A stretch of DNA of 64,000 nucleotides from Escherichia phage APCEc01. The DNA lies in the sequence record NC_029091.1. The stretch is one strand, 5' to 3'. Positions 7,766 through 32,786 of this stretch are shown one piece after another. Every line of letters starts with the position of its first letter. The first letter of the stretch is position 1. Made by a program: the position numbers and the translations under genes. Below the pieces are notes generated by a model that saw only the letters and a list, made by a program, of their open reading frames with translations, searched no databases and was not told where the DNA came from.

Positions 7766-7766
7766 T

Positions 7767-7810
7767 GTACAAACGCCAAGGATGGTGGTACTATAGACTT
7801 ATCAACTACA
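7767..7810 (+). promoter_or_regulatory. early promoter (PeSL type)
   Basis: GTACAA -35-like, TACTAT -10, TAGACTTATCAACTACAGAGG box. Confidence 0.5.
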
Positions 7811-12698: not shown

Positions 12699-13004
12699 AT
12701 GAAATTAGGCGAAACCAACCGAATTGGTCTTTTAACAATATTTGTATCACTTTTTTACGCAGCTCTTTCTGTTGCAGTATTACAAAAGGCTTACAGTATG
12801 GATGGTGTTCCTGGTTTTGTATTCTTATCGCCGTTTTTGCTATTCGTTGGAGCATTGTTATTATATGCCACGACTAGTTTCGACCATAACGTCTGGGTCA
12901 ATTATAAATGTAAATTGTCTGAAGAAGAACACGCAGAAGCTCGTAAAAAAGCTATTGAATCTACCAATCTAGAAAATTTCATTAAAGAATGTCGAGGAAA
13001 ATAA
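12699..13004 (+). CDS. membrane protein with C-terminal ENFIKECR motif
   Basis: 101 aa, two hydrophobic helices; ends ...NLENFIKECRGK. Confidence 0.5.
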   Translation: MKLGETNRIGLLTIFVSLFYAALSVAVLQKAYSMDGVPGFVFLSPFLLFVGALLLYATTSFDHNVWVNYKCKLSEEEHAEARKKAIESTNLENFIKECRGK

Positions 13005-25976: not shown

Positions 25977-25995
25977 GGGACCTTCGGGTCCCTTT
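25977..25995 (+). terminator. candidate terminator hairpin
   Basis: GGGACC-TTCG-GGTCCC hairpin followed by TTT. Confidence 0.45.
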
Positions 25996-26013
25996 AGGGG
26001 GTTAAAATATTTT

Positions 26014-26050
26014 TAAAAAGTAGTGTACATGCTTTTAGGATATGATACTA
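26014..26050 (+). promoter_or_regulatory. early promoter (PeSL type)
   Basis: TGTACA -35-like, TACTAT at 26036, TAGACCTATCGAAACGAAATGAG box. Confidence 0.5.
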
Positions 26051-26089
26051 TAGACCTATCGAAACGAAATGAGTAAATTGGAGAATAAA

Positions 26090-27208: not shown

Positions 27209-27496
27209 ATGGATTTTATGCAAAAAATTAAAGCCGCAGTCGAACTCTATGCTCATCGTATGGTTAGTTCTACAATGCAATATAGCGAGGAGGTTCGCCA
27301 GGACTCTTCCTTGAAAGGAAAAACTAAAGCCTTAATTACCTTAGATCGTTTGCAAAAGAATGCCATAGAGATGCTCCAGTACGACAAGGGTGTATATAAG
27401 AAAGAACAGGAAGAGAAACTTAAATCTGAAAAATTACAAAAAATCCCGAAGTCTGTTTGGTTCAGTGGAAAAAATACCGAAAAAAGTTTCTTTTAG
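27209..27496 (+). CDS. hypothetical protein
   Basis: 95 aa; AGAGGA RBS; overlapping track ORF 27108..27314 judged less likely. Confidence 0.45.
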   Translation: MDFMQKIKAAVELYAHRMVSSTMQYSEEVRQDSSLKGKTKALITLDRLQKNAIEMLQYDKGVYKKEQEEKLKSEKLQKIPKSVWFSGKNTEKSFF

Positions 27497-27498
27497 TT

Positions 27499-27540
27499 GT
27501 TTACAAGGTCTATGGTTATGTTATTATAGACCTATCAACT
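27499..27540 (+). promoter_or_regulatory. early promoter (PeSL type)
   Basis: GTTTAC at 27499, TATTAT at 27522, inverted repeat AGGTCTAT / ATAGACCT. Confidence 0.55.
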
Positions 27541-27554
27541 ACTGGAGGTAAAAC

Positions 27555-28082
27555 ATGAACGCTAAAGATATTTTCAACCTGGTAAATTATAACGACGGTA
27601 AATTTAAATCTGAAGCACAAAGCAAGTTCTTTAATGACGTTGCTTATGGTAACGAGATTACCGTGGACGGAGGTCAGATTTTCAAATCTCGCTGGAATTG
27701 GATTGTTATCATCGATTCAGTTGGAATTGTGGAAGTCTACAAAAACACTAACAAAAAACGTACATTATTCTGGTCTCGTGAAACTAACGAGCAGTACAAA
27801 AAGGATAAAGCATCTCGTTTATCCAAAGTAACCCAGGAAGATATCGAGTTTATCAAGAAAGATATCGAGATGTACGAAAATTTAATCGCTGAAGACCAGG
27901 CAGTACTCGATAAGTTTGATGAAATTAAAGCTTCTCGTGAAATCCCTGACTTCATGAAAGAAACAGTAAACGAACGATACGCTCTCACTTCAGAACGTAT
28001 TGCAAACTATACAAAACAGAAAGCAGAACGTATTAGTACTCTTCGGAAATTTGAAGAACGTTTAAAGACGGTTCACGCATAA
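27555..28082 (+). CDS. hypothetical protein
   Basis: 175 aa; CTGGAGG RBS. Confidence 0.5.
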   Translation: MNAKDIFNLVNYNDGKFKSEAQSKFFNDVAYGNEITVDGGQIFKSRWNWIVIIDSVGIVEVYKNTNKKRTLFWSRETNEQYKKDKASRLSKVTQEDIEFIKKDIEMYENLIAEDQAVLDKFDEIKASREIPDFMKETVNERYALTSERIANYTKQKAERISTLRKFEERLKTVHA

Positions 28083-28109
28083 ACGCTTTACCCAAGGACG
28101 GGTTATAAT
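28082..28109 (+). promoter_or_regulatory. candidate MotA-dependent middle promoter
   Basis: ACGCTTTA (MotA-box-like, one mismatch to TGCTTtA) 13 nt upstream of TATAAT at 28104. Confidence 0.35.
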
Positions 28110-28144
28110 GGTTTTGAGTTCCAATTCAATCTGAGGAAATAGTT

Positions 28145-29140
28145 ATGAGCATTACATCTGATGCGGTAAAACATGAAATTAACGGTTTATGTGCTTCACA
28201 GATTAAAGTATGGTTTAAAGACCATAACGATCGCAGAGCACTTAATTATGAGCAAATTGCTATCCAAGTTCATCAATTACTGACTAGTAAATTTGATTTT
28301 CATATGCCGTCTGAAATCTATACTAATCTGCCGCGAGCACTTATTAAAGCGTGTAAAGGTTATGGAAAATCAATGGCTGATGGAATCTTCAGCGCGCTGA
28401 ATAAACTTAACGTTCTGTCGATGATTAACTCTAACAACATCCTGCGTAATCTAGGACGTACTGATTTGTTCGGCCGTGAACAGGGTAAAATGCCTTTGAA
28501 ATGGATTGTTGCTCATCTTAACGAGAACCAAACACGTTTTATGGCCGTAACAGCACGTTTACAAATGGGCCTAGATCGTCAGATGAACTTTAAAACTCAT
28601 CCATGTTATTCAGGTTCAACAAACTTTTATAAATGTGAGCTTCAAAAGGTCGGTGGCAAAACCGTCTTAGTAGTTCGTGTAACGTTTGAAGGACGACGTC
28701 AAGGATATTTTGACATAATCGGCTCTGGACTTAAACATTGTGGATTTATCGACGAAGTTGATATCAAGCGAGACGGCGTTGGATACCGTATTGGGTATGT
28801 TTGTACTCTTAAAGAAGAGATTTCAGGACCAGCTCCAGGACTAAAAGACGTTAGATATAAAGACGAGCTCGTTGAAGAAATAAAAGAAGTTGAATATGAT
28901 ATCAACCAAGAAGATGCTCTTAAAGACCTTATTGATGAACTGAACCAAGACGTTATTCCGGTTCAGAAATTTGAATCAAAACATGCTGAGCAAATCAAAT
29001 ACTTTGAAGCTTTGATTAACGAACTTAATGTAACTATTCAACAGACTGACGATGAAATCTCACGATTAGCAGGCTTAAACGGTAAAAATAAAACAGAACG
29101 AGCTAATCTTATTCAAGTAGTAAAACTTCTTAAGGAATGA
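28145..29140 (+). CDS. hypothetical protein with C-terminal coiled coil
   Basis: 331 aa. Confidence 0.5.
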   Translation: MSITSDAVKHEINGLCASQIKVWFKDHNDRRALNYEQIAIQVHQLLTSKFDFHMPSEIYTNLPRALIKACKGYGKSMADGIFSALNKLNVLSMINSNNILRNLGRTDLFGREQGKMPLKWIVAHLNENQTRFMAVTARLQMGLDRQMNFKTHPCYSGSTNFYKCELQKVGGKTVLVVRVTFEGRRQGYFDIIGSGLKHCGFIDEVDIKRDGVGYRIGYVCTLKEEISGPAPGLKDVRYKDELVEEIKEVEYDINQEDALKDLIDELNQDVIPVQKFESKHAEQIKYFEALINELNVTIQQTDDEISRLAGLNGKNKTERANLIQVVKLLKE

Positions 29141-29170
29141 TGTACAACCAAGGATGGTTGGAGTATAATA
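29141..29170 (+). promoter_or_regulatory. early promoter (PeSL type), duplicate of element at 30135
   Basis: TGTACA, then ACCAAGGATGGTTGGAG hairpin, then TATAAT at 29164. Confidence 0.55.
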
Positions 29171-29195
29171 AATTTTTCAACATGAGGAATATAAA

Positions 29196-30131
29196 ATGGC
29201 TTTTATTACACGTAGAGAACTTATCAAAGAATTTACCTCGAACGCATATACTCCAGGACCTAATCCTATCCGTATGCCTGTAAAGACTCCTGAAGAGATT
29301 GAGGAAATCTGTTCGTATTATGGGATTAATTCTCGTAAGTTTACTCAATTTGAATGCGTTACTAACACACCCGTTAAAGAGTTCATTAAAAATGGCGAGT
29401 TCAGCCGTTTATTGGCCAAACAGAAACTTCGTAATTTTTGTATTGGCGGTGAAGGACAATATTTCGCTAAGCAGTTCCGGAATAACCTTAACAATCTGAT
29501 GGCCATTGCTTCTCGTATTCGTCCTCAAGCAATTAACATGAAACATTTGAAATATACTTACGATAAGTTGGAAATCATGGTTATCAGTGAGAACGAGTTC
29601 ACTCTCACGTATAAACCTAAGAATGATAACGTTGCTCGTGTATTCCACCAAGCGTTGGAAGTGTTAGGTGATAATATTCACCAGATTAAAGCAATTTATT
29701 CTCGTGAGCTTAATATTATCAACCCTATCAAGAATAAGGGCCATATCGCTATCCAGGCTCGTGTATCTATTGGTAAAAAGGTTCCTGCGCCATGGTGGCA
29801 CAAAGACTCTGAATACTATCAAAATCTTAAAAAGGAAAATGCAACGTTCGAAGCGTCAATTACTGCAACCCCAATTGGCCATGCTGAAGTTCTAGGTGCA
29901 TATTCTACTGCTCCATCTATACACATTTCACCGTCGACTAAACTGGAAATCTCTAACGGTCTTCTTCCTGCCGAAGATTACCATTATAATCAAATCAAGG
30001 CCACTGTAGACCAACTATCCGTTGAACTTGACAAAGCACAAGCTAAGCTTCGTGATGCTCAACAAGTAGTTACCAAGCTCCAGTTGCAGTACTCTAAACT
30101 TTTTAACGCAATGAATGCGTTAAAATCATAA
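29196..30131 (+). CDS. hypothetical protein with C-terminal coiled coil
   Basis: 311 aa. Confidence 0.5.
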   Translation: MAFITRRELIKEFTSNAYTPGPNPIRMPVKTPEEIEEICSYYGINSRKFTQFECVTNTPVKEFIKNGEFSRLLAKQKLRNFCIGGEGQYFAKQFRNNLNNLMAIASRIRPQAINMKHLKYTYDKLEIMVISENEFTLTYKPKNDNVARVFHQALEVLGDNIHQIKAIYSRELNIINPIKNKGHIAIQARVSIGKKVPAPWWHKDSEYYQNLKKENATFEASITATPIGHAEVLGAYSTAPSIHISPSTKLEISNGLLPAEDYHYNQIKATVDQLSVELDKAQAKLRDAQQVVTKLQLQYSKLFNAMNALKS

Positions 30132-30134
30132 ATC

Positions 30135-30166
30135 AGTTTACAACCAAGGATGGTTGGAGTATAATA
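30135..30166 (+). promoter_or_regulatory. early promoter (PeSL type), duplicate of element at 29141
   Basis: GTTTACAACCAAGGATGGTTGGAGTATAAT; same 26-bp core as at 29141. Confidence 0.55.
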
Positions 30167-30193
30167 AATTTATCTTAACGAGAGGAAAATATT

Positions 30194-31144
30194 ATGACAC
30201 GTTCACATTACATTGAATACTTTGCAGGTCTTATCGCTAACGTTCATGCCCAACGTGCTTCTGGTGTACTAGGATTTGATGTTCCACACCGAGATGTAGT
30301 AAGTGGTATTCTTCGAGATTTTGGTACATACATAGGCCAAGAAAATCATATCTGTAAAGATACTCAAAATGCATATTCTCATTCATTAGGGACACTGCTT
30401 CAATGGTTCAAACGTTCTCGTTTATTATCTTCTACTGTAGCTCGCGATAACATTAAAAACTTTATGAAGCCGAGCTTCATTAAATCTGTGACATCTAAAA
30501 CCGATTTGGTTGAATTCACTATTGTTAATGATGTTAAAAAGACTCATTTGGCTGATTGGTTATCTACCATTCCTGAAACTAAATTTGCTGATAAATTTGC
30601 TTGTGAATTCAATAACCAAGTGAATATGCTTTTTAAACATTCTCGTAAATTATTCACAGGCGGCGATGATCGTACAAATACAGTTCATGCTAAAGATTGG
30701 GTTACTGCAGTGTTCAAACCAACCGGTAATGGTACCGCATCATTATCAATTGATATTCAGGTTCCTTATTATTACTCACGTAATCTCGGCACCATGAAAG
30801 CTGAAGAAATTAAGAAGCACAATAAAACCATTCGTTCGCTGTCTTATAAACTTCGCATGATGTTAAGAGTCATGGACGTGGTAGAAATGTATGATGAAAC
30901 CGAAGATAATGGTTCAATGTTATACAGTTCTCGCATTCAAATTAAGTTGAAGAACCCTAACGAGTATAAGCCTAAGCCTATTAAAGAGCCTAAAGCAGAA
31001 AAAGTTGATAACTTAAGAGAAGAACGCGAATATCTCAAATCTCGTCTGAAAGAAGTCGAAGCCCAGATTGCAGAACAAACTAAATCGTTAAAAGCTCTGA
31101 ATGCGAAAGCGGATGGTTTACGAAATGCCATTGAGGTGTTATAA
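30194..31144 (+). CDS. hypothetical protein with C-terminal coiled coil
   Basis: 316 aa. Confidence 0.5.
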   Translation: MTRSHYIEYFAGLIANVHAQRASGVLGFDVPHRDVVSGILRDFGTYIGQENHICKDTQNAYSHSLGTLLQWFKRSRLLSSTVARDNIKNFMKPSFIKSVTSKTDLVEFTIVNDVKKTHLADWLSTIPETKFADKFACEFNNQVNMLFKHSRKLFTGGDDRTNTVHAKDWVTAVFKPTGNGTASLSIDIQVPYYYSRNLGTMKAEEIKKHNKTIRSLSYKLRMMLRVMDVVEMYDETEDNGSMLYSSRIQIKLKNPNEYKPKPIKEPKAEKVDNLREEREYLKSRLKEVEAQIAEQTKSLKALNAKADGLRNAIEVL

Positions 31145-31449
31145 TGAAACTACGTCTTTTAGAGGATATTGATATGAGCACTAATCATGGCTTGGTTAAG
31201 TTTATTGACGATAGTTCAAAGATTGAATTTGTTCAGCGAGATAAAATCCACGGTGAAGAAGAGTTTGTTCCTCCGGCATGGAACGAAATAATGAAAATGG
31301 TTGAACGACGTGAAAATGCTGCCAAATCGGCAGCAAAACATCCATGCCCGGAATGTGGAACTATCCAAGTCCAACTGGTTAACTGGACAACTGATAACTT
31401 GAAATTGAAATGCCGTAAATGCTTCCACAAATTTGAGAGAACATTATAA
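31144..31449 (+). CDS. zinc-ribbon protein
   Basis: 101 aa with CPECG...CRKC. Confidence 0.45.
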   Translation: MKLRLLEDIDMSTNHGLVKFIDDSSKIEFVQRDKIHGEEEFVPPAWNEIMKMVERRENAAKSAAKHPCPECGTIQVQLVNWTTDNLKLKCRKCFHKFERTL

Positions 31450-31862
31450 TGAGATATAGCCTTCGTTGTTTTATCGCAGCTTTAGTTTTTGCTATTATTC
31501 CATTCATTTGGAACAGCCAGAATACTTACATGGAAACTAAAGTAATTCCTGTGGAGGTAGTGGAATTAATCTCAGGCCAATCTACAGGAAAATATTCTAA
31601 ATTAGAATTTATTGCAGTCTATAAAGATGAGCAAGGACGAGTTTTTGACAGGCATGTATCACCGTCGTTTTATACGCTTCTGAATAAAGGTGATACGATA
31701 GCTATAGAAATTCGTGAGATGGATATCAAACAAACTACTAAAGATAACTTGATTTGGTTCTTTGGTACGGTGTTGTTGGTTTCTATCTGTATCACAGGTT
31801 TTATTACATGTATTGTATTTGGCGTTGCATATTTAATCGATGAAAGGAAAAATAATGTTTAA
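31449..31862 (+). CDS. membrane protein
   Basis: 137 aa; N- and C-terminal hydrophobic helices. Confidence 0.45.
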   Translation: MRYSLRCFIAALVFAIIPFIWNSQNTYMETKVIPVEVVELISGQSTGKYSKLEFIAVYKDEQGRVFDRHVSPSFYTLLNKGDTIAIEIREMDIKQTTKDNLIWFFGTVLLVSICITGFITCIVFGVAYLIDERKNNV

Positions 31863-32118
31863 AGTGTACGGGTATGACTCTACTATTCATAAATGCGTTT
31901 ATTGTGATAATGCGAAACGATTGCTGACTGTTAAGAAACAGCCATTCGAATTCATTAATGTTATGCCAGAAAAAGGTGTGTTCGACGATGAGAAAATTAC
32001 TGAGCTTCTGACTAAGCTCGGGCGTGAAACAAAAGTCGGATTGACAATGCCACAGGTATTTGCTCCTGATGGAACTTTGATCGGCGGATTTGACCAACTG
32101 CGAGAATATTTTAAATGA
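31855..32118 (+). CDS. nrdC: thioredoxin/glutaredoxin NrdC
   Basis: ATG 31855; MFKVYGYDSTIHKCVYCDNAKRLL... with CVYC active site; 87 aa as T4 NrdC. Confidence 0.85.
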   Translation: MFKVYGYDSTIHKCVYCDNAKRLLTVKKQPFEFINVMPEKGVFDDEKITELLTKLGRETKVGLTMPQVFAPDGTLIGGFDQLREYFK

Positions 32119-32411: not shown

Positions 32412-32429
32412 CCTGCGAGAAAATTTTAA

Positions 32430-32786
32430 ATGACATATTCATTAAATCTTAAAGATTTCCAAGATGTATACGAAGTTTGTGCCAATGAACTTGGACCTGA
32501 TGCTCCAACTATTATTGAAGTTTTAAATGTGCTCCCTTCATCATTAGCTTACGAAGCCAAATCATGGGGTTGGAACGACACTGTCGTTCGTGATGACCTT
32601 TACGTCCTGATGAACGATATGATGGTTAAAAAGGCAGAACCGGTTGCGCCAATGGTTACCATTACCGTTGAAGAATATAATCGCCTGCAAGCCATTGAAG
32701 AGCTTCTGTGGAACATTGAATGTGACCTGCCGTCAGGGCTAGAATCCTGGATTGATTATGAAGAGCTCAATAAACTCCGGGGTTAA
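32430..32786 (+). CDS. hypothetical protein
   Basis: 118 aa. Confidence 0.45.
   Translation: MTYSLNLKDFQDVYEVCANELGPDAPTIIEVLNVLPSSLAYEAKSWGWNDTVVRDDLYVLMNDMMVKKAEPVAPMVTITVEEYNRLQAIEELLWNIECDLPSGLESWIDYEELNKLRG

Follow-up and report, generated by a model that had tools for sequence, protein, structure and literature searches.

Do three neighbouring genes of similar length, whose products all end in a heptad-rich helix, encode unrelated proteins joined to a common module, or do they form one family that has diverged in place? This question is raised by positions 28145–31144 of a 64 000-nucleotide stretch of the genome of Escherichia phage APCEc01 (NC_029091.1), hereafter the window. Three open reading frames (ORFs) of 331, 311 and 316 amino acids lie here on the plus strand, each behind a GAGGAA-type ribosome-binding site. 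They are the nrdC.6-, nrdC.5- and nrdC.3-like genes of the nrdC hyperplastic region, named after their counterparts in phage T4, and belong to known orphan families of a well studied phage group. An earlier reading of the DNA (the original prediction) had described three consecutive genes of 310–330 amino acids, as is indeed the case, and had taken them for a modular family in which unrelated N-terminal domains share an oligomerization or anchoring module. Most of that observation holds, but its modular interpretation does not. Our preferred explanation, to which we assign a probability of about 0.6, is that the genes are diverged tandem paralogs subject to turnover by promoter cassettes, whose products would act against host defence as coiled-coil oligomers.

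Family assignment and comparison of the protein bodies

Families were assigned from Pfam and PHROG profile matches to the products of the following genes.

28145–29140, plus strand: nrdC.6-like gene, 331 amino acids
29196–30131, plus strand: nrdC.5-like gene (the middle gene), 311 amino acids, DUF7235
30194–31144, plus strand: nrdC.3-like gene, 316 amino acids

The first protein matches phrog_2257 with residues 1–331 (E = 4.4e-127) and T4 NrdC.6 with 37% identity over 139 amino acids (E = 4e-18); its close homologues carry a precomputed Pfam assignment to PF26899. The middle protein aligns through residues 15–310 with positions 1–307 of Pfam model PF23882 (386 bits at a cut-off of 30, E = 1.6e-115), on which T4 NrdC.5 itself scores 418 bits. 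The third protein is 56% identical to T4 NrdC.3 (E = 2e-121) and matches phrog_1435 with residues 1–316 (E = 3.8e-106), and PF26897 is the precomputed assignment on all of its homologues.

Pairwise BLAST among the three proteins gives nothing significant, and it is at this level only that their N-terminal domains can be called unrelated, as had been claimed; profile searches show remote homology of the bodies, more weakly for the first protein. With shallow family alignments hhalign probabilities stay below 5%, and enlarging the families brings a gain for NrdC.5 versus NrdC.4 only. The comparison of nrdC.3 with nrdC.4 reaches 97–99%, and that of nrdC.5 with nrdC.4 reaches 70% in global mode. 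PHROG cross-matches that run through the bodies join phrog_1435 to families 26858, 23608, 31182 and 33957, which contain proteins of 324–346 amino acids. T4-like phages of Klebsiella, Enterobacter, Proteus and Acinetobacter have one protein of 324–343 amino acids with a terminal heptad helix between nrdC.10 and nrdC, KP179, Entb_43, DLP1 and ABTNLPp2 being among the phages concerned, and the NrdC.3/.4/.5/.6 superfamily is present in three to four copies in the E. coli T-evens.

Profile searches were run on a local database of 424 ORFs taken from the window and from the fetched loci. A first-round profile made of NrdC.3/NrdC.4 and three single-copy homologues retrieves NrdC.5 proteins of the T4 type at E values of 2e-8 to 6e-4, the Enterobacter protein at 3e-8 and the first protein of the array (W_28145) at 0.0044, while noise sets in from about 0.08. 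With those families added in the next round, the middle protein (W_29196) is found at 4e-6, and ORFs of the NrdC.6 family hold ten of the following 11 ranks (E = 0.0015–0.15). As a coil-free control, the last 75 residues were cut from the seeds and from the database (284 ORFs). The trimmed profile of the nrdC.3/nrdC.4 type then matches the bodies of T4-type NrdC.5 proteins at E values of 3e-6 to 1.3e-5, and the trimmed enlarged profile matches the NrdC.6-like bodies of Dhakavirus at 7e-5 to 4.5e-4. Starting close to the N-terminus, the alignments run collinearly across helix and hairpin motifs that the proteins share; the collinear motifs read F(K)RSRLLS...NF, F..EF..N...L....KL..GDDR and L..L..MDVVE..D...I.IKLK.

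The two AlphaFold2 (AF2) models agree in the order of their elements, namely six helices, a β-β-α-β-β unit, a linker and a C-terminal helix (11/300 in an element-order shuffle test). Both match the same BFVD entries from T4-like phages (E5EYP0, Serratia phage CBH8); these matches are weak because the TM-scores are only 0.2–0.35. Foldseek finds nothing in the PDB (best E = 0.028, probability ≤0.3), a PDB sequence search gives no match, and homologue searches with the three proteins yield only close relatives among the matches listed. A NrdC.3 profile run against 1.84 billion representative proteins returns five clusters, and the family is thus very narrow.

On these comparisons we regard the bodies of the NrdC.5-like and NrdC.3-like proteins as homologous, firmly so by transitivity. 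The NrdC.6-like protein probably belongs with them, and, with somewhat less confidence, we favour the view that the three genes are collinear, full-length and diverged tandem paralogs and not shuffled modules. In our proposal a single accessory-protein family, kept as one copy in several T4-like phages, would have expanded in the E. coli T-evens, and its members would follow one plan, in which a helical N-terminal part leads into a small β-β-α-β-β unit and a variable linker then precedes the amphipathic helix at the end. The literature searched holds no report of a superfamily relationship or a shared architecture of NrdC.3, NrdC.4, NrdC.5 and NrdC.6.

Promoters and the repeated cassette

Each gene was said to have its own promoter, and promoters are indeed found for all three; that of the first gene is of a different type, resembling the MotA-dependent middle promoters of T4.

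28081–28109, plus strand: middle-type promoter of the first gene (sequence compared with the MotA-box consensus)
29141–29178, plus strand: cassette copy 1, with −35 TGTACA (29141–29146), hairpin CAACCA/AGGA/TGGTTG (29145–29160), GGAG (29160–29163) and −10 TATAAT (29164–29169)
30137–30174, plus strand: cassette copy 2, with −35 TTTACA (30137–30142), hairpin (30141–30156), GGAG (30156–30159) and −10 TATAAT (30160–30165)

The cassettes in front of the second and third genes form a 36-nucleotide direct repeat (29143–29178 and 30139–30174) with 35 of the 36 positions identical, which bears out the duplicated promoter cassettes with the same hairpin that had been described. The 17-mer ACCAAGGATGGTTGGAG occurs exactly twice in the 64 kb, where 0.05 occurrences are expected and none of 100 shuffles reaches two. 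Both promoters have a 17-nucleotide spacer and are among the best σ70 matches in a 7.5 kb scan. Copy 2 agrees with the consensus at 11 of 12 positions, and the same promoter has been annotated in phage NBG1 by its authors.

T4 middle promoters combine a MotA box of consensus (a/t)(a/t)(a/t)TGCTTtA with a −10 element at a distance of 12 ± 1 bp (PMC2988021). The first gene is preceded by the MotA-box-like element AAACGCTTTA (28081–28090), with C for T as its single deviation, and 13 bp further on by TATAAT (28104–28109). This layout fits that of the T4 middle promoters, and the promoter is predicted to depend on MotA. A hairpin related to that of the cassettes, ACCC/AAGGAC/GGGT (28090–28103), occupies its spacer, and T4 nrdC.7 and the nrdC.6-like gene of Dhakavirus are likewise preceded by a MotA-type arrangement with a hairpin. 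The three genes would accordingly be expressed before replication, the first from a MotA-type middle promoter and the next two from near-identical σ70 early cassettes.

Presence and absence of the middle gene

Among 152 Mosigvirus-type records, 131 contain the middle gene according to tblastn, and in the remaining 21 (14%) it is absent and the gene-less junction is contiguous. Mosigvirus G2285 illustrates the latter state: its nrdC.6-like gene is followed by one hybrid cassette and then by the nrdC.3-like gene, and the left half of that cassette resembles copy 1 and the right half copy 2. The middle gene is an indel with the two cassettes as its exact bounds; deletion and insertion are indistinguishable. 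We propose that the cassettes may double, like the promoter-early stem-loop cassettes discussed below, as short homology patches for the gain or loss of whole genes, of which the middle gene would be one instance. The literature searched contains no report of a cassette-bounded presence/absence of an NrdC.5-like gene, and the 21-versus-131 polymorphism bounded by a 36-nucleotide repeat offers a clean natural case of cassette-mediated gene gain or loss in T-even coliphages.

The hairpin in the promoter spacer

An odd feature of the cassettes is the position of the hairpin CAACCA-AGGA-TGGTTG within the spacer between the −35 and −10 elements. It is found again in front of nrdC.7, nrdC.4 and nrdC.3 of T4, of the nrdC.6-, nrdC.5- and nrdC.3-like genes of Mosigvirus and of the nrdC.6- and nrdC.4-like genes of Dhakavirus. 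Six variants of the arms are found, and the loop is constant (AGGA, or AAGGAC). Over eight distinct sequences 89.6% of the cells are paired, compared with 65% in shuffles, none of 500 of which reaches the observed value; compensatory changes affect four of the six pairs, and slid controls give 17–40%. Hairpins of at least 5 bp with an AGGA loop are confined in the whole window to the two cassettes, the first promoter having the AAGGAC-loop variant. We found no report of a covarying hairpin within a promoter spacer in the literature searched.

The hairpin may be a functional nucleic acid element, either a guide for recombination or, in read-through early transcripts, a signal for RNA processing or insulation that acts together with the RegB-like GGAGUAUAAUA beside it; on both readings the promoter cassettes that carry it would be portable ones of a new type. 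The RegB/S1 consensus is a single-stranded, intergenic GGAGRAYARAA in an early transcript (PMC1702504). The sequence GGAGUAUAAUA at 29160–29170 and 30156–30166, made up of GGAG and the −10 element, agrees with it at nine of 11 positions, and the last base of the stem is the first G; we offer this putative site as a lead only.

The hairpin could instead be a functionless quasi-palindrome that was inherited as part of the promoter and owes its perfection to templated (snap-back) repair or gene conversion, so that the cassette would count only as a promoter and a homology patch. The stems are short and weak (−5 to −9 kcal/mol as RNA, with z-scores of −1.5 to +0.3 that are ordinary for their composition), a terminator scan at the cassettes finds nothing and the hairpin has no U tract, and Rfam gives no match in 27400–31500. 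The hairpin also lies upstream of its own transcription start and can be present in read-through transcripts only, and most other early promoters in the window do not have one. The mismatched arms CATCCA/TGGTTG in Mosigvirus JM10 resemble a crossover product. This explanation is harder to reconcile with the six arm variants, which retain Watson–Crick pairing, with four pair types at one position, around a constant AGGA loop, with the retention of the hairpin in two promoter types of different spacing, and with a G·T wobble in a further copy (7774–7787) that suits RNA better than DNA. We give an idle quasi-palindrome a little less than even odds.

Three related arrangements occur away from the array. 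The further copy just mentioned belongs to a fourth early promoter of this kind, TGTACA-N17-TACTAT at 7766–7794 of the window and thus far from the nrdC genes, with the stem CGCCA/TGGTG (7774–7787), an AGGA loop and one G·T wobble. In Mosigvirus JM10 (around 1500–1568 of the fetched locus) the same type of cassette stands downstream of the dexA exonuclease gene; its arms have one mismatch and resemble the product of a crossover, within the loop, between two of the arm variants, so that this cassette is portable between loci. In Enterobacter phage Entb_43 (around 12750–12836 of its locus) a 9 bp inverted repeat (AATCCGTGA...TCACGGATT) surrounds the −10 element of the MotA-type promoter of the single-copy homologue; this promoter-embedded hairpin has a different shape.

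Function of the three proteins

A precedent for function comes from T4, in which nrdC.5 restores the infection of cells that contain Dsr1 from ECOR17 (Srikant, Guegler and Laub, eLife 2022, PMC9391042). Dsr1 is an NAD-depleting defence, the sensor of which has recently been reported to recognize phage major capsid proteins (PMC13581612). The literature further describes the neighbouring gp49.2 as an inhibitor of OLD and NrdC.1 as an inhibitor of Septu, and with NrdC.5 and Dsr1 as the third such pair the T-even nrdC region is emerging as an anti-defence island. Since T4 NrdC.5 is a published counter-defence gene, an anti-defence role is the best inference for its relatives. Early and middle promoters, fast divergence, changes in copy number, the indel polymorphism, decayed copies and the literature context also make a host-range or anti-defence set the most likely description, and by analogy we infer that the three proteins act in this way. 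Each paralog would neutralize a different host immunity protein, for which T4 NrdC.5 versus Dsr1 is the only experimental precedent. A more ambitious version is that each of the NrdC.3–NrdC.6 paralogs may be directed at a different host immune sensor, with diverged coils preventing mixing when they are co-expressed; taken jointly with a functional AGGA-loop hairpin, as two linked claims, this diversifying set of homo-oligomeric inhibitors appears doubtful to us.

The single-copy relatives suggest another role. The family may serve a conserved pre-replicative function, for example the modulation of a host process at takeover, in which case the copies in E. coli phages would be sub-functionalized duplicates, and T4 NrdC.5 would counter Dsr1 indirectly or as a peculiarity of its lineage. 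The retention of one copy at an unchanged position in the T4-like phages that infect Klebsiella, Enterobacter, Proteus and Acinetobacter agrees with this, as do a MotA-type middle promoter that is read upstream of it in Klebsiella phage KP179 and Enterobacter phage Entb_43 and the strong conservation of the terminal helix and several body motifs within families. The family is, on the other hand, extremely narrow and fast-evolving (the five clusters mentioned above), its copy number varies, the middle gene is missing in 14% of the Mosigvirus records, nrdC.6 is frameshifted in the T4 reference and nrdC.4 is split in an IMG/VR contig, and T4 clones without nrdC.5 grow on K-12 (PMC9391042). Variable copy number, decayed copies and growth on K-12 without nrdC.5 are signatures of dispensable host-range genes, and we consider a role outside defence unlikely. 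If NrdC.3–NrdC.6 are one diverging family, with a single copy in many T4-like genera, three or four orphan families turn into one testable set of candidate immune antagonists and into a natural series for the study of specificity change after duplication.

The C-terminal helices

The terminal segments and the linker of the middle protein are located as follows.

28976–29137, plus strand: heptad-rich C-terminal segment of the first protein (heptad scorer, AF2 and entropy)
29859–29960, plus strand: hypervariable linker of the middle protein, residues ∼222–255, with indels
29970–30128, plus strand: heptad-rich C-terminal helix of the middle protein, residues 259–311
30983–31141, plus strand: heptad-rich C-terminal helix of the third protein, residues 264–316, about six uninterrupted heptads

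Heptad patterns were scored with a scorer of our own, the threshold being the 95% level of 300 shuffles per protein. In each of the three proteins none of the 300 shuffles reaches the observed maximum, and the heptad-rich ending described for all three genes is thereby upheld; the T4 orthologues NrdC.3, NrdC.4 and NrdC.5 behave in the same way. From the AF2 model and the per-position entropy, the first protein consists of a body (∼1–225), a variable linker (226–255) and C-terminal helices (∼256–330). Its heptads cover residues 278–310, after which G-L-N-G-K-N interrupts the pattern before a last helix at 316–330; AF2 places helices at 273–294, 302–312 and 316–330 with low confidence, and the entropy of this segment within the family is ≤0.1. 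The middle protein has its entropy peak at residues 226–255, and its terminal helix weakly matches coiled-coil profiles as well as phrog_26858 at its C-terminal end. For the third protein AF2 predicts a single helix at 275–315, with a predicted local distance difference test (pLDDT) score of 66–81. Structure prediction places long C-terminal helices in the two models, which are poor overall (pLDDT 53 and 48), and searches of Pfam, NCBIfam and PADLOC yield only weak matches to coiled-coil families.

By entropy, few parts of the proteins are as conserved within a family as the terminal helix, and the linker that precedes it is the most variable and contains indels. Between families, the best ungapped scores of the C-terminal 45 amino acids are no higher than those of shuffles that preserve the heptad register (p = 0.56, 0.75 and 0.17 for the three pairs in the window), so that the expected similarity among the C-termini is not detected at the sequence level; this comparison is underpowered, because the proven paralogs NrdC.3 and NrdC.4 also fail it (p = 0.95). 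Strong conservation within each family makes a role in self-association plausible, and the best explanation for the terminal helix is that it mediates family-specific self-association, as a coiled coil through which each protein would form a homo-oligomer.

The alternative from which we started, that domain shuffling had attached one C-terminal oligomerization or anchoring module to three unrelated N-terminal domains, finds some support in the lack of pairwise BLAST similarity among the bodies, in the heptad-rich helix that ends all three proteins and in several PHROG cross-matches of the NrdC.5 family that are confined to the last ∼60 residues. Had such a module been shared recently, it should be recognizably alike in the three proteins, and it is precisely the helices that are not significantly alike between families, while the bodies are joined by coil-free searches, align collinearly and agree in protein length and order of elements. 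The three proteins do form a family, as was proposed, but not a modular one, and fusion to a common module is improbable. Still less credible is a virion-associated or membrane-anchored protein with the C-terminal helix as its attachment element, for which the long amphipathic helix is the sole argument: this role, and with it the anchoring function that had been suggested, is disfavoured because the promoters are early or middle (σ70 or MotA type) and not late and the genes sit in an early-strand region of early accessory genes, and also by helices that are charged and heptad-patterned and not hydrophobic, and by the absence of matches in the structural category of PHROGs apart from a weak match of the T4 NrdC.5 coil to a tail tape measure (E = 0.7).

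Weighing the combined explanation

The preferred explanation, tandem paralogs with cassette turnover, anti-defence activity and coiled-coil oligomers, has to be set against several results that count against it. With regard to homology, the middle protein is only 23% identical to T4 NrdC.5 over 297 amino acids and reaches no better than 0.035 and 0.0047 in the coil-free searches. The hhalign probability for a link of the NrdC.6 family is <2%, and that link is marginal: its E values of 0.0015–0.01 relate to a database of 424 ORFs, and its best coil-free match is one motif of ∼50 residues. The agreement in fold is soft evidence, because both AF2 models are poor at the pLDDT values given above. 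Oligomerization through a coiled coil is suggested by a home-made heptad score together with helix prediction. With regard to turnover, the comparison with phage mobillu over 6.1 kb shows 84 mismatched or gapped columns in 29800–30099 and 0–4 differences in every other bin of 100 nucleotides except the 32000 bin, which has 18. Most differences from the closest genomes fall in the linker of the middle protein, and the mosaic boundary between Mosigvirus alleles lies inside the middle gene and not at the cassettes. With regard to function, no match to defence, anti-defence or structural families is found in Pfam, NCBIfam, PADLOC, the PDB sequence search or Foldseek, and a single conserved copy across distant genera could point to a housekeeping role rather than an arms race.

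Genome setting

The 4 kb around the array are 97–98% identical in DNA sequence to many Mosigvirus genomes (BLAST), which identifies the source as a Mosigvirus-type T-even phage of the RB69-like coliphage group. The look of the promoters had suggested a T5-like phage, which BLAST rejects. The plus strand of the window is the counterpart of the early-transcribed strand of T4. The gene map was drawn up from the annotated T4 nrdC region and phage mobillu by all-against-all BLAST, and it places the following genes around the array.

Start 26069: nrdC.10 counterpart, 78% identity to T4
Start 27209: nrdC.9 counterpart, from the T4 map
Start 27555: nrdC.8 counterpart, 83% identity to T4
Start 31144: nrdC.2 counterpart, from the T4 map
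31449–31862: nrdC.7-like membrane protein, from the T4 map
Start 31840: nrdC counterpart, from the T4 map

The stop codon of the third gene overlaps the start of the nrdC.2 homologue at 31144 (TAATG, 31142–31146). Compared with the T4 nrdC region, the window has no counterpart of nrdC.1 or nrdC.4, and the order in 31144–31862 is unlike that of T4: the nrdC.7-like gene is downstream of the array, and in T4 it is upstream of nrdC.6. The names 'thioredoxin' and 'Mur ligase' that many GenBank records give to these proteins are unsupported and were carried over from the nrdC.x locus names.

In the T4 reference (NC_000866, 7997–8200, minus strand) nrdC.6 is frameshifted after ...NKQIEEL. Immediately before nrdC.5, a different frame still encodes the part of the ancestral C-terminal helix that the shift cuts off (DISIQQYDDEIFRLSGLSSKAKSEREKLIKIVDLLKS*), and four IMG/VR Tequatrovirus contigs (L011–L013 and L015) have nrdC.6 in an intact frame. 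One of these contigs (L011, 9948–10980) has the nrdC.4 homologue split into ORFs of 193 and 158 amino acids, probably a decayed copy.

Two further repeats accompany genes of this region. The nrdC.10 and nrdC.8 promoters lie in a 57-nucleotide repeat that is 70% identical (26004–26060 and 27480–27536), both copies ending in TATAGACCTATC. A 21-nucleotide repeat, CTGCGAGAA(T/A)ATTTTAAATGA, is 20/21 identical between 32098–32118 and 32413–32433, at two successive gene junctions downstream of nrdC.

Comparison with known systems

The closest known protein is T4 NrdC.5 (PF23882, phrog_2351), with which the middle gene shares a full-length family match, its relative place within the nrdC region and a terminal heptad helix. 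The middle gene differs in having an early-promoter cassette of its own, whereas T4 nrdC.5 follows nrdC.6 directly without one. T4 NrdC.3 and NrdC.4 (phrog_1435, PF26897) and NrdC.6 (phrog_2257, PF26899) are uncharacterized early proteins; the window is without an NrdC.4 copy, and the T4 reference NrdC.6, truncated by its frameshift, lacks the terminal helix that is present in the first protein. DSAD1, a phage protein that blocks the SIR2-type NADase defence DSR2 (PMC10973363, PMC11087589), is comparable by functional analogy only, having no relation to NrdC.5 in sequence or fold.

For the cassettes, the nearest relatives are the promoter-early stem-loop (PeSL) cassettes (Arbiol et al., 2010, PMC2839356; Comeau et al., 2014, PMC4122927) and, for the promoter of the first gene, their middle-promoter version PmSL, which has also been described. 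The stem-loop of a PeSL lies upstream of the −35 element and is a terminator, whereas here it is within the −35/−10 spacer, has 5–8 bp and an AGGA loop and is without a U tract. PeSLs have an AT-rich tract upstream of the −35 element; at copy 2 ten of the 14 positions before 30137 are A or T, in a genome of 37% G+C, and copy 1 abuts the upstream stop codon. A canonical PeSL layout, consisting of a G+C-rich stem-loop (GGTCCCTTTAGGGGGTT), an AT-rich run and a promoter, is present elsewhere in the window at 25987–26065, upstream of the nrdC.10 homologue. In common with PeSLs, the two cassettes are short, repeated and intergenic and combine a strong σ70-like promoter, a stem-loop and a ribosome-binding site, and at both of them the early promoter is followed by GAGGAA and ATG. 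Cassettes of both kinds border accessory ORFs of a hyperplastic region, and their positions agree with the boundaries of indels.

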